Translations under genes and position numbers: made by a program
Notes under the pieces: model-generated
Databases searched by the model: none
What the model saw: only the letters and a program-made list of their open reading frames with translations
Told to the model about the DNA's origin: nothing
DNA from: a virus
Taxonomy: Duplodnaviria > Caudoviricetes
Length of the DNA: 43,103 nt
IMG/VR virus record: IMGVR_UViG_3300032257_000031
Coordinates: 1-43,103 of that record
Reading direction: 5' to 3' (one strand)
Shown: in pieces, positions 5,802 through 34,800 of the stretch
Numbering within the stretch: the stretch's first letter is position 1
Layout of the letters: each line of letters opens with the position of its first letter

Positions 5802-5984
5802 ATGAAAGGATATAGAACATTGGTATTTAATGTCGCAGCGGCAGCAGGCACGATAGCTACTCTTTTCGGTGCAGATATTCCGCCTGAAAAGCTAGACACT
5901 GTGGCAACAGGGCTAGTTTCCTTAATTGCATTAGGCAACCTGGTGCTGAGAGCGGTTACTGACTCGGCTATATTTAAGAAGTAG
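5802..5984 (+). CDS. Small two-TM holin-like protein
   Basis: MKGYRT start, two hydrophobic helices, LRAVT...KK end; follows the endolysin. Confidence 0.6.
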   Translation: MKGYRTLVFNVAAAAGTIATLFGADIPPEKLDTVATGLVSLIALGNLVLRAVTDSAIFKK

Positions 5985-6252
5985 GTTTATTAATTAGTTC
6001 ACTTATTCTGTCGGCTACAGCCCTTATCTCGGTTGAGCAGTTATAGAAATTTCTCTCGCTATTGTCTGCGGTCGCCTCCAATTCATCAACCAGCTTCTCT
6101 AAATCCTTTACTGGTATGGATGGCTCACCATGATCAATATGCCCTACAGTACCTACGTTTACGGCGATATAATAATTGCAGGTTTTGGCTAATTCGCCAA
6201 GTTCAGTAAACCTACAATCTGGTTTATTCTTACAGGTATCACATAAACTCAT
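5974..6252 (-). CDS. Small protein with Cys cluster and an EF-Tu G1-like motif (VNVGTVGHIDHG)
   Basis: ORF track; motif read directly at 6162-6127. Confidence 0.7.
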   Translation of the reverse strand: MSLCDTCKNKPDCRFTELGELAKTCNYYIAVNVGTVGHIDHGEPSIPVKDLEKLVDELEATADNSERNFYNCSTEIRAVADRISELINKPTS

Positions 6253-6855: not shown

Positions 6856-7197
6856 TTACCCTCTCACCTCTTTAACTGCTGCTTGGAGTAGCGCGGTGGT
6901 GTAGTCTTTATCGCAAACCTGATCGCTGTATAGGGTCTTAACTTTGCGAAAGATATGCACACCGCTTACATATCTGTGTTTCCATTTACATTTTTCAGTT
7001 AGCCAAAGGAATATTTTTTCCCGTTGCGCTGGGTTGTTTTCGGGGGAAATTTCAACCTGTATCCCGTCAAGGTCTGCGTCAGGAATTTCATAGTAGATAT
7101 ATGGGCGGTTGTGGCTGTGACGTTTATCAACACCCTCGTAAACAGAGTAACCCCATACAGCCTCAGCAATTAGTTTTGATGTTTCTGGTTTCATCAT
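6856..7197 (-). CDS. Hypothetical protein (possibly NinX-like)
   Basis: Probable start MMKPETS at 7197, overlapping the Lar stop; IAEAVWG...SPENNPAQ...ALLQAA pattern. Confidence 0.4.
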   Translation of the reverse strand: MMKPETSKLIAEAVWGYSVYEGVDKRHSHNRPYIYYEIPDADLDGIQVEISPENNPAQREKIFLWLTEKCKWKHRYVSGVHIFRKVKTLYSDQVCDKDYTTALLQAAVKEVRG

Positions 7198-7379
7198 CCT
7201 TCCTTGTTGATTCGGGTGTTCCATGCTTTGATTGCTAATTCTTCTGTGTCTTTCCAGCCTGTTTCGCAATCGCAATCTTCGCATTGCCCCCAAAAGATAT
7301 GCTCGCTATCTGGAAAATTAATAAAAACATCATGTGAGCCACAAAACGGACAAGGCTTTAACTCTGTTTGTTCTTCCAT
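7194..7379 (-). CDS. lar: Lar family restriction alleviation protein
   Basis: ELKPCPFCGS...CEDC...AIKAWNTR signature. Confidence 0.8.
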   Translation of the reverse strand: MEEQTELKPCPFCGSHDVFINFPDSEHIFWGQCEDCDCETGWKDTEELAIKAWNTRINKEG

Positions 7380-8689: not shown

Positions 8690-9343
8690 TTATTCAGGTA
8701 CAAAATCTAAGTGCTGTTTAAGCAGGTTCTTATATTTAGTATTAGAATCTGGCGCTTTGTCGTGTAGCAATTTATCAACTTCAATGCGTTCATCATTGGA
8801 CAACCGATTATACGCGGCTACGATTTTCTGATAAGTAGCATCTGGATCGTCTTTATCTATTTCTACCTTAAAGAACTCAGCGGCTTTATTCACCTTAACC
8901 ATGTCAATCGGCTCAGGGCTTACCTGCTCATCTTCTGGGGGCAAGTCCTCACCGGCATAGATATATAATCCGAGGCCGTGTAGAGCGATAGCTTTAGCCA
9001 AGCAGCGCTGTATAGCCGTATTAATGTCAAACGCGCTCGGCTTGTCTACTGGCTTATTCTTAAAGTCCAGCACAGGGTGTATCTGTGTACGCCTAACGCC
9101 ATGAACAATCACCTCAACCTCAACAAAATGCCCTGCGCCTGTTTTCATGTAAGGCACCAGCATCTCAGGGATAGCTATAACATCGTCGCCGTTCTTAACA
9201 ATCATAGGGAATCGCTTTACCTCCCATTCAGCGTTAGGGCAAAATTCGATTAATTTATCAACAGCCCATGCCCAGCTTAGGTAGTTAAACTTGCCTTTCT
9301 TTTCCATTTTTGCTGAAACGTCTAAATTTCTAAGCTCGCTCAT
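8690..9343 (-). CDS. sak: Sak / DUF1071 Rad52-like single-strand annealing protein
   Basis: YLSWAWA...HPVLD..NK...INTAIQRCLAKAIALHGLGLYIYAGEDLP. Confidence 0.9.
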   Translation of the reverse strand: MSELRNLDVSAKMEKKGKFNYLSWAWAVDKLIEFCPNAEWEVKRFPMIVKNGDDVIAIPEMLVPYMKTGAGHFVEVEVIVHGVRRTQIHPVLDFKNKPVDKPSAFDINTAIQRCLAKAIALHGLGLYIYAGEDLPPEDEQVSPEPIDMVKVNKAAEFFKVEIDKDDPDATYQKIVAAYNRLSNDERIEVDKLLHDKAPDSNTKYKNLLKQHLDFVPE

Positions 9344-10450: not shown

Positions 10451-11344
10451 ATGAATAAAGAAACTAAAGAAATATTTGAGAAGTTAGGGGGCAGGAATGC
10501 CGTGTCTTTTGTTTTTGATGTTACTTACGCCGCTGTTATGGTGTGGGAAAAGAAAGGTGTCCCTGCAAAATATGTACCTACCATGTCGTCTTTAACTGGT
10601 TGCGATAGAAGTGTTATTAGGCCGGATTTATACGGCAAAGAGGCCTATGTTGATATGGGCGCGCTGGAACGAGCGTCTGTAGGGCTGCATCTATACCAGA
10701 AGAAAAAAAGAGGCCGAAAGATAAATGAACCCAAAAAAGCGGAGCTTAGCGCCAGCAGGGATAATGATATTTATACTATGTACACATCTGGAAAAACACT
10801 ACAGGAAATAGGGGATAAGTACGGCTTCACGAGAGAGCGTGCGCGGCAAATATTATCTAAGTACGGAGTGTCTCGATTGGATGGCGGTCAGGCAATGAGG
10901 TCATTTGCTTGTGTTGCACACAGAGGAAAAGAACAAAAAGAAAAAACCGCAAAGAGATTGGCGAAATCGTGGGGCTGCACAAAAGAACAGTATGATTTTT
11001 TAAGAGGTTTTAACGAGGACTATCGTAAAACTCCATTGCGCGCCTATACTGAGCAAAAGAGAAACGCGAAAGTTAGAGGTATATCATGGGATTTCAATCT
11101 CTGGAGTTGGTGGAAGGCCTGGGATGAATCTGGAAAGTGGTCTTGTAGAGGAAGGGGTAGAGATAAATACGTTATGGCTAGAATCGCGGATTTAGGCGGT
11201 TATAATAAAGGCAATGTCGAGATTATAACAATGTCACAAAACGCAAAAGATTATTATAAATACCATCTTGACGAGCATAAAGAGATTGTAAGGAAGGCGA
11301 AGAAAAATAAGCCCTGCGCGGTGCGCCGGATGCCAAAAAAATAA
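10451..11344 (+). CDS. Cro-like HTH fused to a sigma-4-like HTH and an HNH-like domain
   Basis: LGGRNAVS...AVMVW...VP...IRPDLYG (Cro/YdaS-like); GKTLQEIGDKYGFTRERARQIL; MARIADLGGYNKGNVEIITMSQN. Confidence 0.75.
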   Translation: MNKETKEIFEKLGGRNAVSFVFDVTYAAVMVWEKKGVPAKYVPTMSSLTGCDRSVIRPDLYGKEAYVDMGALERASVGLHLYQKKKRGRKINEPKKAELSASRDNDIYTMYTSGKTLQEIGDKYGFTRERARQILSKYGVSRLDGGQAMRSFACVAHRGKEQKEKTAKRLAKSWGCTKEQYDFLRGFNEDYRKTPLRAYTEQKRNAKVRGISWDFNLWSWWKAWDESGKWSCRGRGRDKYVMARIADLGGYNKGNVEIITMSQNAKDYYKYHLDEHKEIVRKAKKNKPCAVRRMPKK

Positions 11345-15039: not shown

Positions 15040-15239
15040 TGAACTCAATACACCATCACGGAAAGGAGTTTGTCCACCAGGACAGCTTCACCGATCAAAA
15101 AGGCGCTGATTACACCGCATCACTACTTAAATCTCACGGCTACCGCTACAGAATAAAGAAAAGAAGCCTAAACCCGCATTGTATAGCGGGACTTGGAAGG
15201 GGTATATTTTACGCGGTTTATAGAGGGGCATCGAAATGA
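15039..15239 (+). CDS. Hypothetical protein
   Basis: TAATG coupling to the upstream gene. Confidence 0.5.
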   Translation: MNSIHHHGKEFVHQDSFTDQKGADYTASLLKSHGYRYRIKKRSLNPHCIAGLGRGIFYAVYRGASK

Positions 15240-15666: not shown

Positions 15667-16506
15667 ATGCGAAAAATCATATTGTGGTCGGCTGTTGTCC
15701 TATTTGCTTCCGTTTTTGTTTTTGATGGGTGGAAGATAGTGGAAACTGGAAATGTTGGCGTAAGCAAGACTTTGGGGACGATTTCAGAAGAAGAAAAAAC
15801 AAGCGGCTTTATGCTTAAATTGCCACTAATAACTAGCATAGACGAATTTATCGGCAAGGAAATAGCTGTTGATCTAAATAATTTAACCCCGAAAGCGGCA
15901 GACAATCTATCACTGAGGGATATGGATGTAACCGTATTTTATAGCGTTGTGTCGTCTAATATTTCAGACATGAGAACCAAGTACGCAAATTCCCATGAGA
16001 TTGACGGCGAGTCTGGATATTATATGCCCGCATACGGACTAGTCTTTCGCGAGGCAAGAAGCGCATCCTATAAAGCAATCGCAAAAGTCGATTCGTTGCA
16101 AATGCACAAAGAAAGAGAAAGCATCGCTATCGCTATAAAAGAAGACCTGCAAAAGGCTTTAGATAAAGACGACAATGGTGTATTTGTTGTTTCACGAGTA
16201 GTCATTCGCTCCGTGCTAACAGATGCATCAATTGAGGAATCAATCAGAGACGCAGTTGCCAATACCAAAAAATTAGAAGCGAAGGCGGTTAAGGTAGAAA
16301 TTGCCAAGAAAGACGCAGAGATCAAGATAGAAGAAGCTAAGGGTATTGCTACAGCTAACAATATTATCGATAAATCTTTAACTAAAGAATATCTACAGCA
16401 TGAGATGAATTTAGCGATGATGGAGTTTGCTAAGTCTGGCGCTAATACTGTCGTGGTTCCGGCTAACATGGGTAATATGAGTATGATACTTCCTCAAGGC
16501 AAATAA
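15667..16506 (+). CDS. SPFH / Band-7 / prohibitin-family membrane protein
   Basis: N-terminal TM, IVETGNVGV..TLG, C-terminal EIAKKDAEIKIEEAKGIA..N.II.KSLT. Confidence 0.9.
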   Translation: MRKIILWSAVVLFASVFVFDGWKIVETGNVGVSKTLGTISEEEKTSGFMLKLPLITSIDEFIGKEIAVDLNNLTPKAADNLSLRDMDVTVFYSVVSSNISDMRTKYANSHEIDGESGYYMPAYGLVFREARSASYKAIAKVDSLQMHKERESIAIAIKEDLQKALDKDDNGVFVVSRVVIRSVLTDASIEESIRDAVANTKKLEAKAVKVEIAKKDAEIKIEEAKGIATANNIIDKSLTKEYLQHEMNLAMMEFAKSGANTVVVPANMGNMSMILPQGK

Positions 16507-20024: not shown

Positions 20025-20231
20025 ATGAGAATGTCACCAAAGCGGCGCGAAACCATAAAAATGCAGATAGAACATGCCCTTAACATCGGCATGAATGTGT
20101 GCTTTGTTAGCAATAACGGATCGGCAAGAGAAAGGCGCGTTAATGGCATGACCCTGCATAAGTGGGAGTCATTTAAAATCAAAGGGATCAAACCCGACCT
20201 AATTATTTGTGATGACATAGGTGTTAATTAA
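20025..20231 (+). CDS. Small protein carrying a terminase-like Walker-B segment
   Basis: KIKGIKPDLIICDDI vs TerL KIRG...RPGLIICDDM; AAGGT RBS; TAATG coupling to the Q-like gene. Confidence 0.65.
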   Translation: MRMSPKRRETIKMQIEHALNIGMNVCFVSNNGSARERRVNGMTLHKWESFKIKGIKPDLIICDDIGVN

Positions 20232-20812
20232 TGAACTCTGATATTATCTCGCACCTTAACCCTAAAACACAGACCATAGCGGCTACTATAGGCGGCTACG
20301 GAGGACTTAAACCAGAAGATATATGTCATGCCCTATCTGGCCTAAATAAAGGCTCATACACGCTAGGACTCGCCATGCACGGATATGAGGACGCCAGAAA
20401 AGATTTAACAAATTGTTTGATCGAATCAATCCAAGACAAAATAAAACCGCTCGGCACGAATTACACTAGAATATTAGCCTTAATCGCAGTACATGAAGAA
20501 ATTGGCGATAGCCCATGTCAAGTATGCAAGGGGCGCGGATTCGTTTATAAGCAAATAGAACACCCCGATCAAATAGCAATGACTGAAAACGGACTACTTC
20601 CAACGCCATGCACCGCACCGCAATGCGTAGAAGGCGGATATAGAATGACAGACCGGGAGCGCGGCGAACTCATAGCCGAAGCGATAGATCAAAATTACAC
20701 CCAATCAGCATGGCGTAACGGCTGGTCATGGGATTTATCCGAAGCACTTTCTACGCTGTCAGAATGGCAGCATAAACTTAATATTCATTTAGGCGTGAGA
20801 CTGGAAAGATGA
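20231..20812 (+). CDS. Q-like late antitermination protein
   Basis: CQVCKGRG...C...C Zn finger; position at the end of the nin-like region. Confidence 0.55.
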   Translation: MNSDIISHLNPKTQTIAATIGGYGGLKPEDICHALSGLNKGSYTLGLAMHGYEDARKDLTNCLIESIQDKIKPLGTNYTRILALIAVHEEIGDSPCQVCKGRGFVYKQIEHPDQIAMTENGLLPTPCTAPQCVEGGYRMTDRERGELIAEAIDQNYTQSAWRNGWSWDLSEALSTLSEWQHKLNIHLGVRLER

Positions 20813-20997
20813 TCGGATTAGCCCAGATAAAGCCGGAAGGATATGCTTGCATTGTCACATGCCATAGCAAGGGCTATAAATTACCCTATATCAGTAATTG
20901 TCGCGGTGTTGTCGTGGACAATCAGGCTTACACCATGAAGGAATATTCTCGACTATATGTTAAACAGCAGCCATTTTATAAGGGAGCGCAGATATGA
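20809..20997 (+). CDS. Small protein starting with a capsid E-loop-like motif
   Basis: GLAQIKPEG; ATGA overlap with the Q-like gene. Confidence 0.55.
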   Translation: MIGLAQIKPEGYACIVTCHSKGYKLPYISNCRGVVVDNQAYTMKEYSRLYVKQQPFYKGAQI

Positions 20998-21143
20998 AAA
21001 TTAGACGTCTTGATGTTGGCGACGAATTCAAAATAGCCTATTTTCTTGGTATGCGCGCACTCAGAAGGATCGGACATTCAAACAACAAAATATTGAAAGA
21101 TATATTTAAAAAACACCCATTTTATAGAGGCACAGGGCAATGA
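20994..21143 (+). CDS. Hypothetical 49-aa protein (not in ORF track)
   Basis: ATGA overlaps at both ends; GGAG RBS. Confidence 0.5.
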   Translation: MKIRRLDVGDEFKIAYFLGMRALRRIGHSNNKILKDIFKKHPFYRGTGQ

Positions 21144-21460
21144 AAAGACGTTCATTTTTGAAATTATTAGGCGGTGCAGCAGTAGCGGCAACAGCGCCAG
21201 GCGTAGCTATAGAGGCGGCGGTTAAGCCAGAGATTAAGAAAAGTGCAGGGGTAGCGGATAAAAGCAGCCTTGGCCTAGCCGAAATCAAGCAAGAAGGAGT
21301 GGTTGTTAAAAGTGAATTTGGAAATGCACTATGGCCTGGCGCAGAAAAATACTATAAAGCATCTTATGATACCTATAGCCATGAATTGGCTAAAGCATTG
21401 GCTGAATCAATGCGAGAAACACAGAAAAAGGTCGTGTCCAATGTAAAATATGGCTTTTAA
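21140..21460 (+). CDS. Tat-signal protein composed of permuted major-capsid segments
   Basis: MKRRSFLK plus hydrophobic stretch; ALWPG, GLAEIKQEG and ALAESMRET match the MCP. Confidence 0.8.
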   Translation: MKRRSFLKLLGGAAVAATAPGVAIEAAVKPEIKKSAGVADKSSLGLAEIKQEGVVVKSEFGNALWPGAEKYYKASYDTYSHELAKALAESMRETQKKVVSNVKYGF

Positions 21461-21515
21461 GTAGATTTATATCGCAATAATTGCTACTATTAACTAAACA
21501 ATTCCCCCGTTCCCC

Positions 21516-21535
21516 GCCCCTTTTCAGGGGCTTTT
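21516..21535 (+). terminator. Rho-independent terminator
   Basis: GCCCCT-tttc-AGGGGC-TTTT between convergent operons. Confidence 0.6.
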
Positions 21536-21562
21536 GAGGTATAAAGACCAACTCGCTTGTAT

Positions 21563-21712
21563 TTAGGCGTTATCTAATTGCTTTAGCTTACGAAGTGCTA
21601 CTTGGTAAGCGATATAAAGCGGTAACGCTGGCGGCTTATTAACCGGACAATCGTACTCATAGCCAAAGGCCTTGATATATTGCTCACGCATGAATTTTTC
21701 ACCTTGTTTCAT
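21563..21712 (-). CDS. Hypothetical 49-aa protein (not in ORF track)
   Basis: MKQGEKFMREQYIKAFGYEY...; GGGGA RBS. Confidence 0.45.
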   Translation of the reverse strand: MKQGEKFMREQYIKAFGYEYDCPVNKPPALPLYIAYQVALRKLKQLDNA

Positions 21713-21763
21713 TGTATTCCCCTTATAAGCCCACTAGCCACAATCGACTAGGGGCTATATTGT

Positions 21764-23944
21764 TTATTTATCGATAACGACTAGAACAGTATTGATTCCC
21801 GTTCCTGATTCTTTGAAAGATCCCTCTGGAAGCTCTATTTTTTCGCCCCCAAGATTATCGAACCAAGCGCGGAAAGCTTCGCACTTCTTATCGGAGCGGA
21901 AAAAAGGGCTAGGTGACATGATAGCCACAAGCCGACCGGTATCGCTTAGCTGTTTATACGCCCGCATGACATGATCAACATCTTGCAGGTTTTCAAAAGG
22001 CGGATTCATTAAAACACGATCATAAGTTGTTATTTCTTCCCATTTAACGGTTAAAAAATCACGCTTTTCTATCAAATAGTCTTTAGCGTCGGCTATTTCC
22101 GCTAGTGTGTGATTGATTTCAAAGCCTTTTACCTCAGAGCAAAGAGGCGCAACCGCATCGGCAATAGAGCATGATCCTAGATTCGGCTCTAGTATTCTGT
22201 GATGTGGTTGAATATCGGCATAATCTATCATTAAATCGATAACGGCTTTAGGTGTTGGGAAATAGCCTGGTATTTTAGAGAATTGCAGCCCGTCAATGGT
22301 GCGTTTTAGCTCCTCGGCTTGCTTTTGTTCTTCGGTCTTGCCAGTAATCAAAGACCAAAGCGCAACGGCTTCGGGTGTCGTGTGGTGTGGCTCGCCAGTA
22401 CATACAGAGTATGAATGATAACCATTAGGGATATTTGTTTTAACTGTTCCCATAAGATCAAATACGGCTTTTTTGCTGGTTATATTGGCAAGCACAGCGG
22501 GAACTGTTCCAGCATCGTGCATATCAGCCAAGCCTAAAAGGGCTTGCTGTGTTCTTTGCAGCTTTTCCCCCTCTAGGCGTGAATGGTTAGCCTGCGCTAG
22601 TCGTTTTGCTGTATTGGTCGGACGATCTGCAAGCTTGTTGTCGATAACCGGCTGCATTTTGTCAGCCATTGCGCGGAACTTCTCGCCCATGCCCTTGCGG
22701 GGCTTTGGTGGCTCATCGTTTGGGGATTCACCAGACAGAGAAGCAAGAAAAGACTCGGCGCGCTCTTTATCTTCAAAGGCAAAGCCGCCAGGCGTTGATC
22801 CCCATTTGCGAGAGTACCAACCACCAGCGGCCTTGGCATCGTTTCGCACTTCGTTGAAGGTGTCACGATCTAGCCTTGTATCAGGAACAACCATATACAT
22901 GACAAAACCTTTTTTAGTATGTGTGTGCTCCTCAATGTGGGCTTGAATTAAGCTAGAAGATCGAGCAACGGCAGGAGCCGCCACAACTGGCGCGGCTTCA
23001 AACTCAGCCACATAGGATCCTGTTTCTAGGCTCACGCCTTTATAATTGCCGGAAATATCGACACCAGACAGGGCTTGATAAACAGCATCAGACAGCCATT
23101 GACCGCCAATACGCGCATTATTTTCGTATTCGACGCCATAAGACAGGCAAATGTCTTGCCCTACTAGGGTTTTAACTGATTCGCTAATGGTGCGTGACTC
23201 GATTACATACTTAGATTGACCAAGTACAGTAGAAACAGCGGTAGAATATGCGCTATTATCGTTTTCGTAGATGTCATCCATGCCGTTAAAAGATCCATAT
23301 TGATACTTATCAGTGATCTTTTTAATTTCTGAGGCTGGCGCGCCATCCGTCCAGGATACGCTGATAGAGTTACCCATAGAGAAACTATCGGAAGTGACAG
23401 AAAACTTAATATGGGGATAAGCTTGCTTAAGCTCCTTTTTCATATTCTTAGCCGCCCGCGCATGGCTTGACATTCCAGCGTCCAAGCCAATAGCCCACGG
23501 ATACAAGGCGCGAAGCTCATCGGCTTTAGCAGATACCTGGCGAGACTTGTCGGCTTGTTCGGCTTCTCGCTCGCGGTTTTGTTCGGCTATCTCAGCTTGT
23601 CGATCTGTTCTTTGCTCAGGTGTTTCGCGGTTGTCATCTATCGGCATTGCTTCGCGGGCAACTGGCAAAGCGCCTTTAACGGCTTCAATAACTTGATCGG
23701 CGTTATCCTTAGTGATCATCCAGTCGAACTGATCGCCAATTTCACAAAAAAGATCCTCGGCTTTTTGGTTTTCAGTACCCGAAAACATAGTACTAATAAT
23801 ATACTCAGATTCATCTACGCCAGTGACACCAGACTTTTGCAGCCGCTCAAAGCGTAACCGGTCAAGTTCTTTTATAGCGTGCATAGCATTTTTGTGCCAT
23901 TGGTGGCGGTTAGTTGTTCCTGCTGGTAGTTGAAATTTATTCAT
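21764..23944 (-). CDS. Polyvalent protein: LPD29-like domain plus N6-adenine DNA methyltransferase (DarB-like antirestriction candidate)
   Basis: AAKNMKKELKQAYP.IKFSV.S....GNSI.VSWTDG (LPD29-like); YFPTP, ILEPNLGS, VLMNPPF, GRLVAIM, LPEGSFKESGT. Confidence 0.85.
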   Translation of the reverse strand: MNKFQLPAGTTNRHQWHKNAMHAIKELDRLRFERLQKSGVTGVDESEYIISTMFSGTENQKAEDLFCEIGDQFDWMITKDNADQVIEAVKGALPVAREAMPIDDNRETPEQRTDRQAEIAEQNREREAEQADKSRQVSAKADELRALYPWAIGLDAGMSSHARAAKNMKKELKQAYPHIKFSVTSDSFSMGNSISVSWTDGAPASEIKKITDKYQYGSFNGMDDIYENDNSAYSTAVSTVLGQSKYVIESRTISESVKTLVGQDICLSYGVEYENNARIGGQWLSDAVYQALSGVDISGNYKGVSLETGSYVAEFEAAPVVAAPAVARSSSLIQAHIEEHTHTKKGFVMYMVVPDTRLDRDTFNEVRNDAKAAGGWYSRKWGSTPGGFAFEDKERAESFLASLSGESPNDEPPKPRKGMGEKFRAMADKMQPVIDNKLADRPTNTAKRLAQANHSRLEGEKLQRTQQALLGLADMHDAGTVPAVLANITSKKAVFDLMGTVKTNIPNGYHSYSVCTGEPHHTTPEAVALWSLITGKTEEQKQAEELKRTIDGLQFSKIPGYFPTPKAVIDLMIDYADIQPHHRILEPNLGSCSIADAVAPLCSEVKGFEINHTLAEIADAKDYLIEKRDFLTVKWEEITTYDRVLMNPPFENLQDVDHVMRAYKQLSDTGRLVAIMSPSPFFRSDKKCEAFRAWFDNLGGEKIELPEGSFKESGTGINTVLVVIDK

Positions 23945-23976
23945 TATATTACCCTCGTTTTATGGTTGTATTAGTG

Positions 23977-24168
23977 TTATTTATAGTGTGAATTATTGGC
24001 AAGGTTGCGAGAAATAACGCCGGAACGCTCTAGGCTGTCGATATAATCAACATAAACCATGCGCGTATCGGCTGGCTGTTCGTTTTGAGGCTTTCCGCGC
24101 CGTAACTCGATGTTATTCTCACGACAAAAGGCACGAAATGAAGTATTAACTTGCTTTAAACTGTTCAT
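23977..24168 (-). CDS. Hypothetical protein
   Basis: DTRMVYVDYIDSLERSGVIS; GGGG RBS. Confidence 0.6.
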   Translation of the reverse strand: MNSLKQVNTSFRAFCRENNIELRRGKPQNEQPADTRMVYVDYIDSLERSGVISRNLANNSHYK

Positions 24169-24271
24169 AATTAACCCCTTATTTTTTCAATTGCTTCACA
24201 TATAGCAGTCATAACCATAACTACTACGATAATTATTGATGCGATTATTAGAAATTCCATAATATACCCCT

Positions 24272-24460
24272 TTATGCGTTTATGTCTTGAATGTAATACT
24301 GGCTAACAGCAGAAACAAAATTATCTATCTGCAATAAACGAACGCCTAAAGGGCTGTCATAGTAAAACTTACGGGCAAGCTCTAGATCTTCGACCTTTGC
24401 GGGCTTATGGTCTAAAGCGACTAGCTTATTAAATACTGCTTTTGTGATTTCTGAGTACAT
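24272..24460 (-). CDS. Hypothetical protein, first gene of the inverted cassette
   Basis: GAGGA RBS. Confidence 0.6.
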   Translation of the reverse strand: MYSEITKAVFNKLVALDHKPAKVEDLELARKFYYDSPLGVRLLQIDNFVSAVSQYYIQDINA

Positions 24461-24671
24461 GGTTAGATCCTCTTGATTGACGTTATAAACAGCTTAGAGA
24501 AGAAAAGAACATAAATATAATGAAAAGATTCTATACCCACATAAACAGATTTAATGAGGAGGTGATTTATATCTACCAATGACATTACAGGCGACAAACT
24601 ACAGTCAAAGCCTAATACAAAAGCATACCGCGATAACTTCGATAAGATATTTAATAAAGGAGACAAACCCA

Positions 24672-24830
24672 ATGCCGAATCCAAGCTACAGCAACAAAAC
24701 CGGAACCAGCGCAATAGGTAATGCTAAGAAACTATTAACAGGCGCAACGGCACGAATAGACAAAGCCCTTAAAGAAGCCAATCCACACGAGAAAGGCACT
24801 AAACGTTTCTATAAACATGGTGGTAAGTAA
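24672..24830 (+). CDS. Small basic protein upstream of TerS
   Basis: AAGGAG RBS; ATG 24672. Confidence 0.5.
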   Translation: MPNPSYSNKTGTSAIGNAKKLLTGATARIDKALKEANPHEKGTKRFYKHGGK

Positions 24831-24831
24831 T

Positions 24832-25317
24832 ATGACACAAGGTAGTAAGTACTCAGATGAGATTAAAGATCAAGCCGTTATTGAGTATTGCATTACAGGC
24901 AATGTAGAGAAGGTATGTAAAAGCATAGGGGTGCCTAAACGTACTGTTTATGAATGGATAACTAAGCAATGGTTTATTGATAAGCTTGCAAACCTCCGCA
25001 CCGAAAAAGATCAGGAGTTAGACGCCCTTTACACGGAGACAATACAGTTAGCCAAAGAAAAAGCCCTAGAACGCTTACGGGACGGGGATTACGCCAAACA
25101 CGACGCCGACGGCAATGTACTATATAAGCCCGTATCCGCTAAGGATTGCACGATGGTGGCCGCTATTGACTGGGATAAACGCACGTTACAACGTGGTGGC
25201 GTAACCAGTCGGACAGAAAAAGTGAGCACTGACAAGATGTTAGACGGGTTAACGGAACGGTTCACGCAAGTGTCTAACCTGGCCAAGTCACAAGACGATG
25301 AGCAGGTTAAACATTAG
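24832..25317 (+). CDS. terS: Terminase small subunit (HTH type)
   Basis: KYSDEIKDQA...GNVEKVCKSIGVPKRTVYEW HTH, then helical region; upstream of TerL. Confidence 0.65.
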   Translation: MTQGSKYSDEIKDQAVIEYCITGNVEKVCKSIGVPKRTVYEWITKQWFIDKLANLRTEKDQELDALYTETIQLAKEKALERLRDGDYAKHDADGNVLYKPVSAKDCTMVAAIDWDKRTLQRGGVTSRTEKVSTDKMLDGLTERFTQVSNLAKSQDDEQVKH

Positions 25318-25320
25318 TAC

Positions 25321-25536
25321 ATGCTTAATAACCCTGAATACGCCCTTACAAGCCCTGTCAGCCACGATCTATCATTAGTGATGGCATTGCATAACCTTGC
25401 TATTGATTGCACGCTCACGGCCTCATACGGCGCATATGGTATCCAATACACCATAGATACAAGGGAACATCTGCCAAGCTATCAGGCTATGCACGCTACA
25501 AGCCGCACCATACATAGGCAGTACCATGATGGATAA
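25321..25536 (+). CDS. Hypothetical protein (weak capsid-like motif YGIQYTIDTRE)
   Basis: ORF track. Confidence 0.35.
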   Translation: MLNNPEYALTSPVSHDLSLVMALHNLAIDCTLTASYGAYGIQYTIDTREHLPSYQAMHATSRTIHRQYHDG

Positions 25537-25610
25537 GACTGGCGCGCTACGTGTTACGGCTGGCGAAGGGGTGAACGGGCTACATCATGCGGTAAACTGT
25601 TGATTTCTAA

Positions 25611-25646
25611 GGGTGGGGGCGGGAACATCTGGAGGGGGCGGGAGGG
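25611..25646 (+). other. G-tract cluster; candidate packaging-initiation region
   Basis: GGGTGGGGGCGGGAACATCTGGAGGGGGCGGGAGGG downstream of terS. Confidence 0.35.
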
Positions 25647-25693
25647 AGCGTATTACCCCTTCCCATACTTTAACCAAAACAAAAGAGGCCTTT

Positions 25694-25954
25694 ATGATTC
25701 GTGATATTGATATTTATCCTCCAGACAAAGACGTTATTGAGAAGCTAGAAGACTTGCTAGAAGGCGCTAAGACAGGAGAGATTCAGTCTGTAGCCTTTGT
25801 TACCTCTAAAGGAAACCTGCTAACAGGCAATGGATGGGCGGGCATGTGTAAGAACAACATGGCTATCATAGGGGAGCTAAGATGCTTAGACCAAGAGCTA
25901 TTAGATTTCTTTGTAGAGCGACGAAAAGAGCCTGTTTTTTACGATGAGGACTAA
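25694..25954 (+). CDS. Hypothetical phage protein
   Basis: GAGG RBS; VIEKLEDLLE.AKTGEIQSVAFV. Confidence 0.65.
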   Translation: MIRDIDIYPPDKDVIEKLEDLLEGAKTGEIQSVAFVTSKGNLLTGNGWAGMCKNNMAIIGELRCLDQELLDFFVERRKEPVFYDED

Positions 25955-26095
25955 ACCCCCATATTTTTTTAGCATTTTTCTCAATTTTGCGTTTTGAGAA
26001 TCTCTTTAGATTCCCATAGCTTAGTTACCCCCTTCTCAGTACAGATATACCGAGGGGTAAAAATAAAAATTTCCCTTCGGGAATAGTGCTGGTAT

Positions 26096-26123
26096 TAGAC
26101 CATTGCGAGATATGTGCTATCAT
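26096..26123 (+). promoter_or_regulatory. Putative extended -10 promoter upstream of the 26150-27134 genes
   Basis: TAGACC-16 bp-TATCAT with TG at the extended position. Confidence 0.3.
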
Positions 26124-26149
26124 CAATTAACTTCAATGAGGTTTGAGAT

Positions 26150-26461
26150 ATGATTGATTCCAGTAAGCTGCTTAGTAGCATGCAAGAAACTAATTCCATC
26201 CTTAAAGATGCTTTGCGCCCCACAAACACGCAAGAATGTTTATATTACGGGTACAAGCTATCCAATATTGATTGTGACGATATTGAGACGACTTTTCGGG
26301 ATATATGTATTGGTGCAGAAAGAGACGACGAAAGGGCTATTAAAGAGCGGGTTAAAATATTCCTTCCTGATTCAGGAGATGAAATAGACTTAGAAGATGT
26401 GTTGCGATTTTCCGCTAAGCATTGTCGAGGCATTTACGACAGAGTTGGGAGCGAGATATGA
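26150..26461 (+). CDS. Hypothetical protein
   Basis: GAGGT RBS; ATGA overlap with the next gene. Confidence 0.6.
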   Translation: MIDSSKLLSSMQETNSILKDALRPTNTQECLYYGYKLSNIDCDDIETTFRDICIGAERDDERAIKERVKIFLPDSGDEIDLEDVLRFSAKHCRGIYDRVGSEI

Positions 26462-26922
26462 AAAGACGTAATTTCCTAAAAGCACTTGGTTGCGCCCCAT
26501 TACTATATGCTGCTCCAGCTATTGCGATACCCGAAAAAAAATCGATCGTTCCGAAAACGGTGAGCGAGTTGAACGAAATGATTTTGGCTTACCTGCCTAA
26601 CGATCCAGTAATTAATTATGGCGACGCGATAGCTATATCAAGTATTGGCATAATCCCGCCATCTGCATATAAAGATATGTCGAAATCTAAGCATCACAGT
26701 TATCGCCATGAGTATGTTGTCGCTCAGTACCGCAAAAACATAGATTACGAAGAAGATGACGAAGTAGAAAGCCTCGTCATGCTTGCTTGGCTAGATTTTC
26801 AGAAAAAGGCGAAGGGGGCTAAAAAGATGTATGTGCGGAGAAACATGGAACTAAGCCATGTAACCGATCGGGGTAATATGACGGATTGGCGTATTGCTGG
26901 CCGGTATTCATTTTACCGATGA
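26458..26922 (+). CDS. Tat-signal protein with capsid P-domain-like segments
   Basis: MKRRNFLK...AIA signal; YRH......Y.......EDD..E and KMYVRRNMEL...D...RYSF match the MCP. Confidence 0.75.
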   Translation: MKRRNFLKALGCAPLLYAAPAIAIPEKKSIVPKTVSELNEMILAYLPNDPVINYGDAIAISSIGIIPPSAYKDMSKSKHHSYRHEYVVAQYRKNIDYEEDDEVESLVMLAWLDFQKKAKGAKKMYVRRNMELSHVTDRGNMTDWRIAGRYSFYR

Positions 26923-27134
26923 AAGACCTTAACGAATTCAACCTGCGCCGAGCCGTTCAGCTTTTAGACGAGAGGTCTGGAGGCAAGGACGGCGTTGTGT
27001 TGCATATTAACGTTTCCTTATTTTCCGAAGCGCAAGAGTTTATTGCGAAAGGACTTGTTTCTCGATTGGTCACAATGGGAAATGATGGCTGGTCTTTATC
27101 CCGTAACGGGGTTGGCGTGAATGGTAACACCTGA
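26919..27134 (+). CDS. Small protein resembling the capsid A-domain
   Basis: DLNE...G.KD, L......F..A and DGWSL registers match MCP residues 165-250; ATGA overlap. Confidence 0.55.
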   Translation: MKDLNEFNLRRAVQLLDERSGGKDGVVLHINVSLFSEAQEFIAKGLVSRLVTMGNDGWSLSRNGVGVNGNT

Positions 27135-28554
27135 TGCGGTATTTGGTTTCGTTAATACGATTCTCGCCTCTGGGTTAGACGGATACAAGAAAACCCCTGA
27201 CTGCCATCGTGAGTGGTGGGAATTATGCTGCTCCGACGATGAAAAGGTTGCGATAGCCGCCCCCCGAAATCACGCAAAGACTTCCGCGATAACCATTGCC
27301 TATTTGTTAATGGAGCTGCTTTACCGACAGCAGAAATACGCAATCATTATTTCGGATACCGAAGATCAAGCGATTGAGTTTTTAGACGGCGTTAAATTCC
27401 ACCTAAAAGACAACGAAGAACTGATACAAGCCTTTGGGGTTTCTAAGCTCACTAAAGACGGGCAAACAGATACCATTGTTCAAATGTCAGATGGGCATGA
27501 GTTCAGAATCCTTGCGAAAGGCGCAGAGCAGAAGATTCGTGGCCGTAACTGGCGCGGCGGGCGGCCTGGTTTAATCATCTGTGATGACATGGAAAATGAC
27601 GAGTCGGTAATGAATTCTGAGCGGCGCGCTAAGTTCCGTAGATGGTTCTTCTCAGCAGTTAGACAATCACTACGCGATGGTGGTAAGATACGCGTCGTAG
27701 GGACAATTTTGCATGATGATAGCCTACTGTCCCGATTAATGAAGAACAAAACGTGGACTTCACGCCTTTATTCCGCCCACAAATCCTTTAATGACTTTTC
27801 CGATATTCTATGGCTTGAAAAATGGCCTAAAGAAAGGCTAATGGAGAAAAGGCAGGAATATATTGAAGAAAATGACCCAGAAGGCTATTCACAAGAATAT
27901 TTAAACGATCCGGTTGTATCGCAAAACGCCTATTTCCGCAAAGACGACTTTGTTGAAATGGCAAAAGAAGAACATAACTTGCGAATGACCTATTACTCGG
28001 CGGCTGATTTCGCCATATCCCAAGCTAAAAGAGCGGACAACACCGCCATTATCACGGTAGGCATCTGTCCAGAAGGGTTGATGTACGTCGTTGATCTAAG
28101 AATGGGTCAGTGGGATTCGCTTGAGATCGAAGCCGAGCTATTTGCCGTACAAAGAAAGTACAACCCTGAAATCTTTACCTTTGAGACTGAGAAGATTGAT
28201 AAGGCGATCGGGCCTTATTTAAGGCAGTCTATGATAAGAGAGAACGTTTATCTCAATATCGATAAAATCGTACCATCGAAAGATTTAACGGTGCGTTGCC
28301 GAGGCATTCAGGCGCGACATAAAGCCGGAACAATCAAATACGACATGGACAAAGACTGGTTTGCTATTCTGCAAGAACAGATGATGCGCTTTCCAAAATC
28401 AACAAAAGACGACGCTGTAGCCGCTTTTGCGCTTATCGGCATGACTCTCGATAAACAAATCGAGCCTTCCAACGACGAGGAGTATGAAGACGAAATGTAC
28501 GAAGAAGAATTCGGGCAATCATACTTCGGTCAAGATGCGGTGACAGGATATTGA
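27121..28554 (+). CDS. terL: Terminase large subunit
   Basis: APRNHAKT Walker A, LIICDD Walker B, VVGT, YSQEYLNDP, AADFA and KDDAV nuclease motifs. Confidence 0.95.
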   Translation: MVTPDAVFGFVNTILASGLDGYKKTPDCHREWWELCCSDDEKVAIAAPRNHAKTSAITIAYLLMELLYRQQKYAIIISDTEDQAIEFLDGVKFHLKDNEELIQAFGVSKLTKDGQTDTIVQMSDGHEFRILAKGAEQKIRGRNWRGGRPGLIICDDMENDESVMNSERRAKFRRWFFSAVRQSLRDGGKIRVVGTILHDDSLLSRLMKNKTWTSRLYSAHKSFNDFSDILWLEKWPKERLMEKRQEYIEENDPEGYSQEYLNDPVVSQNAYFRKDDFVEMAKEEHNLRMTYYSAADFAISQAKRADNTAIITVGICPEGLMYVVDLRMGQWDSLEIEAELFAVQRKYNPEIFTFETEKIDKAIGPYLRQSMIRENVYLNIDKIVPSKDLTVRCRGIQARHKAGTIKYDMDKDWFAILQEQMMRFPKSTKDDAVAAFALIGMTLDKQIEPSNDEEYEDEMYEEEFGQSYFGQDAVTGY

Positions 28555-33000: not shown

Positions 33001-33030
33001 ATGGCAGTTATAACATCGGGAAATCACCCT
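33001..33030 (+). CDS. Major capsid protein, exon 1 (MAVITSGNHP)
   Basis: AAGGAG RBS; joins in frame to KALWPGV at 33919. Confidence 0.88.
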
Positions 33031-33918
33031 TCTTGCTGAGGGGCCTTAACAAGTAATTGTTGAGTAAACAGGCATTTAACTGCTGGGAACTCTCGTAGGC
33101 CTATGGTAGGATAATACATGGCGACATGTATCGACCCCTTATAATCCATAGGATAGAGACAATCAGCATCCAATCTTAAAATGTATTACGTATATAGACT
33201 TCTTAATAAAGCCAATCAGAAATCATACATTGGTATAACCTCCAGAACCGTAAAAGAACGGTGGCTTGAACATGTTTCAAGAATCAAGTCCGGTAGGAAC
33301 AGTAGGATATATGCAGCTTTAAGAAAGTATGGACAGGATGGCTTTGAAGTCATCACTCTTGAGGAAACTAGCTCAGAAGATGAAGTGAGAAAACTAGAGG
33401 AAGATTACATTAAACTCTATGACTCATATAGTAATGGCTACAACTGCAATTATGGCGGGTGTGGCACATTATGTTTTTCTGACGAAATCCGGAAAAAGAT
33501 TAGCAAAGCCCAGATCGGCAAAGTCATATCTTTAGAAACAAGAAAGAAAATGTCCGAAGCGAAACTTGGAGACACCAGATGCGCTAAGCATTTCGGAGAA
33601 CATACCTCTAAGGGCGGCAAAAATCCCAGATCAAAATATTTTTTAATCGGATTGCCAGATGGCACCGAAAAAGCCATACAAGGGATTAGAGAATTTTGCA
33701 GAGATAATAATTTGCAATATGCCAAACTTAGCTCGAAAGGTAAGACCAAGGGATTTAGCATTTTAAGAAGGTTCATCGACTATCCAGAAATGGAGTACAC
33801 TCAAGTGAGTGGAAATGGTGCCTACCCCTCAGGGGTAAAGATATAGTCAGCTCTGCATGGAGACATGCAGCAGTCGAAAGACGGGCAAGGGGTTAACGAA
33901 CCTTGTTGAACATAAAGG
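33031..33918 (+). mobile_element. Group I intron (IA2-like), 888 nt
   Basis: P1 CCCU|UC paired to GAGGGG with U-G at the splice site; P AACUGCUGGGAA 33078; Q AAUCAGCA 33161; P7 GACUAU 33778 / AUAGUC 33843; P3 GGCAUU/GGUGCC; P7.1, P7.2, P8 and P9 hairpins; terminal G 33918. Confidence 0.93.
33181..33846 (+). CDS. Intron-encoded GIY-YIG homing endonuclease with NUMOD3-like repeats
   Basis: YVYRL.N..N.KSYIGIT...RW.EH, E..YI..YDS..NGYN, SDEIRKKISKA / SLETRKKMSEA. Confidence 0.92.
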   Translation: MYYVYRLLNKANQKSYIGITSRTVKERWLEHVSRIKSGRNSRIYAALRKYGQDGFEVITLEETSSEDEVRKLEEDYIKLYDSYSNGYNCNYGGCGTLCFSDEIRKKISKAQIGKVISLETRKKMSEAKLGDTRCAKHFGEHTSKGGKNPRSKYFLIGLPDGTEKAIQGIREFCRDNNLQYAKLSSKGKTKGFSILRRFIDYPEMEYTQVSGNGAYPSGVKI

Positions 33919-34800
33919 AAAGCACTCTGGCCGGGCGTAAAAGCATGGTGGGGTCATGAATACGATGAGTGGAATGAAGAATATAAAGACTTATTCGACA
34001 TGGACACTTCAACCCAAAACTACGAAGAAGATGTACAGCTAACCGGCTTCCAAGCTGCTCCTATTAAGGGCGAAGGCGCTGGCGTTGCATACGATTCTGA
34101 AACACAAGGCTTTGTAACTCGTTACAAGCATGTTGTTTACGGTTTGGGCTACATTGTTACGCGCGAAGAAATGGAAGACGGCTTGTACGAAAAAGTCTCT
34201 AAAGGCCGTGTTACTGCATTAGCAGCCGCTATGCGTAATACAAAAGAAACTGTTGGCGCAAATATCTACAACCGCGCATTTAACACTTCTTACACCTTTG
34301 GCGACGGCAAGCGAATGATCTCTAACGATCATCCAAATGCTATCGGCGGCACGTTCTCTAACGTGGCAGATACGGCGTCCGATTTATCGGAAGCGTCTAT
34401 CGAGGACTTGAATATTCAGATCATGGGGGCTAAAGGCCCGAAAGATTTGCAAATCAACCTTATGCCACGCTGCTTAATCGTTCCGCGCCAAGAATTCTAT
34501 AATGCTAACCGCATTTTGAAATCTGTGCTGCAAAACGATACCGGCAATAACGCTATCAACGTACTGAAATCAACTAATGCACTCCCAGATGGCATTAAGG
34601 TGAACCATTACCTTACTGACTCTGACGCATTCTTTATTCGTACCAGCGTTAAGAACGGCTTAAAGTGCTACCAACGACGCGCTATTGAGTTTACTAAAGA
34701 CAACGATTTCAGCACTGAAAACGCCCTTGCGAAAGCAACTGAGCGGTATTCTTTCGGTGTAACAGATGTTCGTGCTGTCTACGGAAACCCAGGCGTATAA
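33919..34800 (+). CDS. Major capsid protein, exon 2 (HK97 fold; spliced product 303 aa)
   Basis: KALWPG, A.IK.EG, YKH..Y.LGY.VTRE..ED.LY, ALA..M..TKE, GDG, DLSE, YLTD.DA.F, ERYSFG. Confidence 0.92.
   Translation, partial: KALWPGVKAWWGHEYDEWNEEYKDLFDMDTSTQNYEEDVQLTGFQAAPIKGEGAGVAYDSETQGFVTRYKHVVYGLGYIVTREEMEDGLYEKVSKGRVTALAAAMRNTKETVGANIYNRAFNTSYTFGDGKRMISNDHPNAIGGTFSNVADTASDLSEASIEDLNIQIMGAKGPKDLQINLMPRCLIVPRQEFYNANRILKSVLQNDTGNNAINVLKSTNALPDGIKVNHYLTDSDAFFIRTSVKNGLKCYQRRAIEFTKDNDFSTENALAKATERYSFGVTDVRAVYGNPGV

Follow-up and report, generated by a model that had tools for sequence, protein, structure and literature searches.

The window analysed here is the whole of IMG/VR virus record IMGVR_UViG_3300032257_000031, a complete 43,103-base Caudoviricetes record with terminal repeats that is present in microbial-mat DNA sequencing runs. 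Ahead of its packaging genes, and overlapping them, lie small open reading frames (ORFs, named by their first position) that we call mini-genes. Two of them, 21140 and 20025, encode reordered pieces from the major capsid protein (MCP) and the large terminase (TerL), respectively, and 21140 begins with the motif of a twin-arginine translocation (Tat) leader. A preliminary description had assigned MCP or TerL content to five ORFs; the assignment is firm for 21140 and 20025, partial for 20809, probable for 26919 and doubtful for 26458. The five ORFs and the two donor genes are as follows (aa, amino acids).

20025..20231 (+), ORF 20025, 68 aa, leaderless: the helix after Walker B, the next core strand and then Walker B, a permuted TerL order
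20809..20997 (+), ORF 20809, 62 aa: begins with the MCP E-loop-tip motif
21140..21460 (+), ORF 21140, 106 aa: Tat-type leader, then MCP E-loop tip (residues 52-63), N-arm helix (3-31) and spine helix (108-126)
26458..26922 (+), ORF 26458, 154 aa: twin-arginine leader and a cargo possibly from the MCP P-domain (weak)
26919..27134 (+), ORF 26919, 71 aa: probable stand-alone MCP A-domain with two helices, strands and the C-terminal strand, the P-hairpin omitted; overlaps the TerL start
27121..28554 (+), large terminase, the reference for the 20025 pieces (phrog_38, E=1.5e-74)
33001..34800 (+), MCP gene, Mu gpT-like HK97 fold, split at 33031-33918 by a putative group I intron carrying a GIY-YIG ORF

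The MCP exons, 33001-33030 (10 codons) and 33919-34800, yield the 303-aa spliced product that had been proposed; the coordinates fit, and relatives are uninterrupted at 302-304 aa. A cultured relative, Alcaligenes phage vB_Af_QDWS535, has an MCP of 49% identity. The inferred intron, which follows MCP codon 10 and contains the GIY-YIG endonuclease ORF at 33181-33846, matched no Rfam model at threshold. The MCP homologue P0003 was modelled as an HK97 fold (pLDDT 88), which places the N-arm helix at residues 16-26, the E-loop at 37-80, the spine helix at 100-128 and the A-domain at 168-252 with a further strand at 297-300.

MCP and TerL profiles were built from homologues, with the window's own genes excluded. 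ORFs were given a mosaic score, in which several ungapped segments may match in any order; the reference set, drawn from 390 sequences, comprised 15,664 small ORFs, each reversed as a control, and residue shuffles of each ORF and the scores of real ORFs served as further controls. Against the MCP profile, 21140 had a mosaic z of 14 (rank 3 of 15,664), was detected at E=2.8e-5 in a six-frame search of the window and aligned with a probability of 87.9 in hhalign. These comparisons confirm that 21140 derives from MCP segments placed out of MCP order. Its leader combines an RRxFLK motif, a hydrophobic stretch and an Ala-rich end with a very short n-region; it passes TIGR01409 (17.7 bits versus a cut-off of 16.7) and scores 19.2 on PF10518, below the cut-off of 22.7. 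The leader resembles twin-arginine signal peptides in these three features; its cargo is a mosaic of phage structural protein and not a cofactor enzyme.

The segments of 20025 correspond, in ORF order, to TerL profile positions 165-181, 192-200 and 143-158. The mosaic score (z=7.2) ranked second of 15,664, above every reversed control and behind only a broken TerL start, and was reached by 0/150 shuffles and 0/250 real ORFs; plain hmmsearch gave E=1.3 only. The best segments fall within profile positions 143-200 and include Walker B, without Walker A or the full ATPase or nuclease domains. The suggested match to the TerL Walker-B segment therefore holds and proves larger than claimed, comprising three TerL ATPase segments in permuted order. 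Plain pairwise alignment with shuffles was significant for 21140 (p=0.004) and 20025 (p=0.01) only. When the mosaic score was run with portal, scaffold, decoration, GroES, tail and small terminase (TerS) profiles, no convincing fragment emerged in the window, the higher z values there being traced to helical or composition-biased profiles. The mini-gene cargo falls under no Pfam, PHROG or NCBIfam family.

In 20809 the E-loop motif lies in the first ten residues. Within the 57,544 six-frame residues of the window this motif occurs twice only, in 20809 and 21140, and it is present in 0/19,804 reversed ORFs. Nine of 12 among the phmmer matches listed for 20809 are MCPs (E 0.2-0.5). The whole ORF was insignificant against the MCP (mosaic z=2.6; hhalign E=0.0016, probability 16), so that its reading as an MCP fragment stands for the N-terminal motif but not for the remainder.

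ORF 26919 gave no match to the MCP directly by hhalign or hmmsearch, its score being reached by 13/150 shuffles and 8/250 real ORFs. It aligns end to end with L047:1319-1579, an A-domain mini-protein of another phage (mosaic z=8.1), at a score reached by 0/2000 shuffles and by 3/5,787 real ORFs including L047 itself; the pair matched MCP residues 161-255 at E=0.0015 (probability 17). A single-sequence model of 26919 (pLDDT 60) predicted a helix-strand-helix-strand-strand order, and fold searches with it returned no capsid protein (best Z 5.1, Foldseek E >0.4). No A-domain mini-protein relatives were found beyond 26919 and L047. Through its L047 relative, and despite the lack of a direct profile or fold match, 26919 is probably an MCP A-domain mini-protein.

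The leader motif of 26458 is visible in its sequence, and against the leader profile of the family it scores E=3e-4; it has no TIGR01409 or Pfam match. The proposal of Tat signals on two ORFs is supported for 21140; in 26458 the motif is present and the general signal models give no match. The 26458 cargo was insignificant against the whole MCP (score reached by 28/150 shuffles; nothing by hhalign or hmmsearch). Against a P-domain-only profile, picked post hoc from the by-eye hypothesis, its score was reached by 9-24/400 shuffles and 3/400 real ORFs, and it was mildly positive on the A-domain control as well (15-36/400). Comparison with the leader-bearing family of L273 and L003 was insignificant pairwise, with hhalign E=0.088 and a mosaic score reached by 2-5/400 real ORFs; no relative was found in 50,697 phage records. 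Atlas searches with 26458 and 26919 gave low-confidence models and no feature match. The borderline P-domain score speaks for an origin of the 26458 cargo in the MCP P-domain, but the whole-MCP tests were null, and we regard that origin as evenly balanced.

The mini-genes do not make up a single cassette: they form two clusters 5 kb apart, with a Q-like gene in the first and an opposite-strand block and TerS between the two. The genes among and between them are as follows.

20231..20812 (+), Q-like antiterminator candidate (phrog_127, E=0.0029), a context gene and not a fragment gene
20994..21143 (+), ORF 20994, 49 aa: has a 41-nt 3' stretch in common with 20809
24817..25317 (+), small terminase candidate (phrog_2538, E=1.1e-4), between both mini-gene clusters

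The head module runs in the order TerS (24817), TerL (27121), portal, GroES-like, scaffold and MCP. An insertion on the opposite strand of the late region (21563-24460, minus strand) encodes a 726-aa LPD29 and methyltransferase protein and three small ORFs. Overlaps are 1 nt between 20025 and 20231 and 4 nt at 20809, 20994, 21140, 26458 and 26919, and 26919 shares 14 nt with the TerL start. The ORFs, coordinates and overlaps are thus as described, but overlaps alone are commonplace in phage small-gene arrays. ORF 20994 has no capsid or terminase match, and ORF 26150 matched no profile tested. A 41-nt repeat (71%) at 20960-21000 and 21106-21146 extends over the 3' end of each of 20809 and 20994 together with the ribosome-binding site that follows, with a third, partial copy at 15217; it may mark shared gene junctions. 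Elsewhere the window encodes a Lar restriction-alleviation protein (7194-7379, minus strand), a Sak annealing protein (8690-9343, minus strand) and an SPFH/Band 7 protein (15667-16506, plus strand); Sak could provide the recombination behind mosaic building. No integrase was found among the ORFs scanned, and promoter and terminator counts in the window did not differ from shuffles. Three DNA runs, one of them possibly its source, and no RNA run are listed as containing the record, and the DNA runs yielded no usable variants.

Genes of this kind recur in other phages. A phmmer search with 21140 on 1.84 billion representatives returned 11 relatives, and a profile search from the resulting family returned 25 matches, including 21140 itself and one partial MCP. 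Besides 21140, 31 family proteins were examined, four of them near-duplicates; members of the family are mostly singletons. All 31 begin RRxF[LF], for which they were partly selected because the query contained the leader. Both the E-loop and N-arm motifs are present in 19/32 family proteins (21140 included), and the E-loop precedes the N-arm in 19/19, the inverse of the MCP order. Other members join a P-domain strand, the spine helix and an A-domain helix; such further combinations indicate that the junctions are kept and reshuffled. A word-indexed search of 5.8 billion proteins found no relative of 21140.

At the DNA level, a pattern search recovered four viral loci. The clearest sister cassette, L258:10001-13773, lies between TerS and TerL and holds three ORFs with MCP pieces, one with the leader and one with a membrane helix, together with a Walker-B piece at 11073. 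In L047 the mini-gene is inserted inside the head module. The same MCP family was carried by 2/5 records reached through mini-genes (the other three being 25-68% complete), against an estimated background, uncorrected for length, of ∼11,000 stretches in 2.9 million contigs. Another leader-bearing family, of ∼220 aa (L273:2800-3456 and 26 related loci), is under purifying selection and shows scattered, weak P-domain-like segments; 4/5 of its records tested carry a gpT-like MCP. The expected co-occurrence with the same MCP family was thus found in 2/5 and 4/5 records reached through mini-genes and sister-family genes, respectively. The pieces are patchy, occurring in only a handful of 270 MCP-bearing loci (flanks <=10 kb). 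In 50,697 phage records, the family member P0139 matched MCP genes only, so that no cultured carrier was found. A scan of bacterial genomes gave three loci, of which L432 encodes a long leader-bearing protein without capsid pieces. Twin-arginine leaders with highly varied cargo were also present on 117 distinct viral ORFs (L259-L376), and by eye some of this cargo resembles other capsid families or the terminase nuclease (L297, L277 and L265).

The pieces are not recent copies of this phage's own MCP and TerL, and other family members match them better. The own MCP ranks 249/357 for the three 21140 segments, and at the E-loop 347/356 homologues score better; the own TerL is outscored by 38 and 31 of 53 TerL homologues on two 20025 segments. 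Between the 21140 segments and the own MCP gene, codon positions 1, 2 and 3 match at 34/60, 36/60 and 18/60, respectively. Seven other phages showed mixed self-likeness, from the strictly self-like L346 (0/356 homologues outscoring the own MCP) through L399 (29), L228 (40) and L255 (45) to L208 (248/355), L044 (262/355) and the far-from-self L047 (353/355). These ranks mark the modules as old or mobile rather than fresh duplicates.

Purifying selection in sister families makes decaying debris unlikely, as had been argued. The dN/dS ratio was 0.34 for the mini-gene of L256/L258, for comparison with 0.18 for TerS and 0.12 for TerL, and 0.04-0.26 among seven close sequences of the sister leader family. 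These values, all below 1, belong to the sister families and not to the window genes, which have no close homologues; from them we infer selection on the window's own copies. When 4.4 Mb were scanned in six frames with stops tolerated, 24 fragments scored higher than any reversed control. Of these, 23 are stop-free and 21 have an in-frame upstream ATG; several low scorers are probably chance matches, and one represents a genuine MCP start where a contig ends.

The mini-proteins hold 10-35% of the MCP chain in altered order, and alone they would be unable to make the fold or a shell. We tentatively favour, with somewhat less than even confidence, the reading that they are decoys, putatively expressed late, for immune systems that sense capsid or terminase, and that the leader serves to tow or tether a bound partner. 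The mini-genes would be expressed together with the late genes, and their products would occupy host sensors of capsid or terminase without triggering them. Through the twin-arginine leader, a bound partner would be towed to the inner membrane or across it, or the bait would be anchored. Expression, export, sensor binding and towing are thus putative steps. What favours this reading is that the two donors are established triggers, alongside which the mini-genes would be expressed. The MCP is reported to trigger Avs7, Avs8 and Avs10 (PMC13581612) and Thoeris (PMC11312562), CapRel is described as a capsid sensor (PMC9712102, PMC13728456), and the terminase ATPase is reported to be sensed by Avs2 and by Upx, for which binding to unfolded core strands has been modelled (PMC13601566); short segments like those in 20025 could, by analogy, present such strands to Upx. 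A Tat leader would suit a decoy provided that the bound partner is carried along, as Tat is reported to do in hitchhiker export (PMC4273604), or that the leader anchors the bait. The pieces also track the structural units of the MCP model, and a lytic-cycle role fits the lack of an integrase among the scanned ORFs better than prophage defence does.

Several observations weigh against decoys. Of the 117 viral ORFs that bear the leader (118 of ∼280 stretches covered), only 3 reach P<0.01 against this MCP profile, and the leader is therefore not bound to this one cargo. Terminase look-alikes, T4 vs.8 among them, are reported to be toxic with Avs2, apparently activating it (PMC13601566), and Avs7 is reported to read a broad folded MCP surface by shape complementarity, which short scrambled pieces may not copy (PMC13581612). 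Export takes a decoy out of the cytoplasm unless its partner leaves too. The dN/dS values come from sister families, of which the leader-bearing one is linked to the MCP weakly (hhalign E=0.013), and homologue searches favour in-frame similarity. The pieces are closer to the MCPs of other phages than to the own MCP, which suits a role against competitors.

Such a role could be that of an assembly poison against co-infecting relatives, in which lattice-contact pieces bind the capsid or terminase subunits of a rival, capping these or pulling them to the membrane, the own MCP having drifted out of reach. In HK97-fold shells, subunits contact one another through the N-arm, the E-loop and the spine helix, and these are among the pieces found; the own MCP is off consensus at the very E-loop motif conserved in 20809 and 21140, and the mini-proteins of L047, L044 and L208 are likewise far from their own MCPs. 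Non-self drift is better explained in this way than by decoys, and phage-encoded assembly inhibitors are reported upstream of packaging modules (PMC11364771). Self-like mini-proteins (L346, L399, L228 and L255), the risk of self-poisoning upon late expression, and the absence of a visible integrase, hence perhaps of a resident state to defend, nevertheless make it rather unlikely. Alternatively, the leader could be the working part, using or jamming Tat or serving as a membrane anchor, with cargo as filler from illegitimate recombination with abundant late-gene DNA and the leaderless ORFs as young or fading by-products. Very diverse cargo does stand behind the same leader, 21140 found no relatives in the word-indexed search and its family is mostly singletons, and 26458, 26919 and most of 20809 are scarcely recognisable. 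Filler would be at variance with a dN/dS near 0.2 in the cargo itself, with the same permuted junction kept across clusters of <50% identity, with third codon positions saturated while residues are retained, and with the recurrence of leaderless fragments; we consider this reading unlikely. The late-region position, the TerL overlap, the L047 insertion in the head module and some self-like cases would also suit helpers of the phage's own morphogenesis, such as minor components of the virion, chaperones, or tethers holding procapsids and the packaging motor at the membrane. That seems improbable indeed for genes found in only a handful of the 270 MCP-bearing loci, arranged differently between phages and, in the window, made of non-self pieces.

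A bolder variant of the decoy reading, which we think unlikely as well, is a combinatorial library of self-mimics, in which conserved capsid and terminase epitopes, divided at structural-domain boundaries and rearranged, are joined to a Tat leader, and the host translocase would then expel a bound immune sensor or rival subunit. Capsid sensing involves EF-Tu as a cofactor or target, and the library might perhaps extend to an EF-Tu loop. The 92-aa early-region ORF at 5974-6252 (minus strand) contains a 12-residue copy of the EF-Tu P-loop (10/12 identical; best PDB E=0.018); among the 60 matches listed all are of EF-Tu or eIF2-gamma type, the motif is unique among 19,804 ORFs, and the ORF has no convincing homologue in phage records. 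If the variant is true, hitchhiker export would be its anti-defence strategy, and the segments chosen would show which epitopes bacterial sensors read.

The mini-genes differ from the systems they most resemble. Gol, a peptide within T4 gp23 that is linked to Lit and EF-Tu, is said to be a short capsid segment able to act by itself on host immunity; Gol sits within the full capsid gene of another capsid family and triggers defence, whereas the mini-genes are separate genes. Mu gpT-like MCPs (PF10124, PF25209 and phrog_371) are the source of the capsid segments, but the mini-proteins are partial and permuted, without a complete N-arm/E-loop/P-/A-domain chain. The nearest described case is T4 vs.8, which with Ksap1/2 is reported as a small accessory phage protein resembling the terminase ATPase and a non-terminase activator of Avs2, an anti-defence role being raised by the authors (PMC13601566). 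T4 vs.8 keeps Walker A, Walker B and the ATPase fold, unlike the 68-aa, permuted 20025 without Walker A, and the available text describes no leader or capsid counterpart for vs.8 or Ksap1/2 (PMC13601566). Tai and Tab, too, are small accessory genes of phages, located close to packaging modules, and could stop the assembly of a rival (PMC11364771, PMC10884400), but they are reported to target tails and not to derive from the structural protein blocked (PMC11364771), in contrast to the capsid- and terminase-derived mini-proteins. General Pfam, PHROG and NCBIfam scans gave no match of the Tai/Tab type, no direct comparison with Tai or Tab being made. A literature search, with subscription journals mostly outside its coverage and supplements (including the vs.8 analysis) not covered, found no paper on genes joining a leader to capsid fragments.

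The mini-genes thus constitute a real and probably selected gene class that has not been described. Capsid and terminase are too constrained to mutate away from pattern-recognition sensors, and how phages cope with this is an unsettled question. If the interpretation is true, widespread, selected fragment mimics would represent a new form of counter-defence or a phage-versus-phage weapon, and would help to make sense of many small phage genes that lack annotation.

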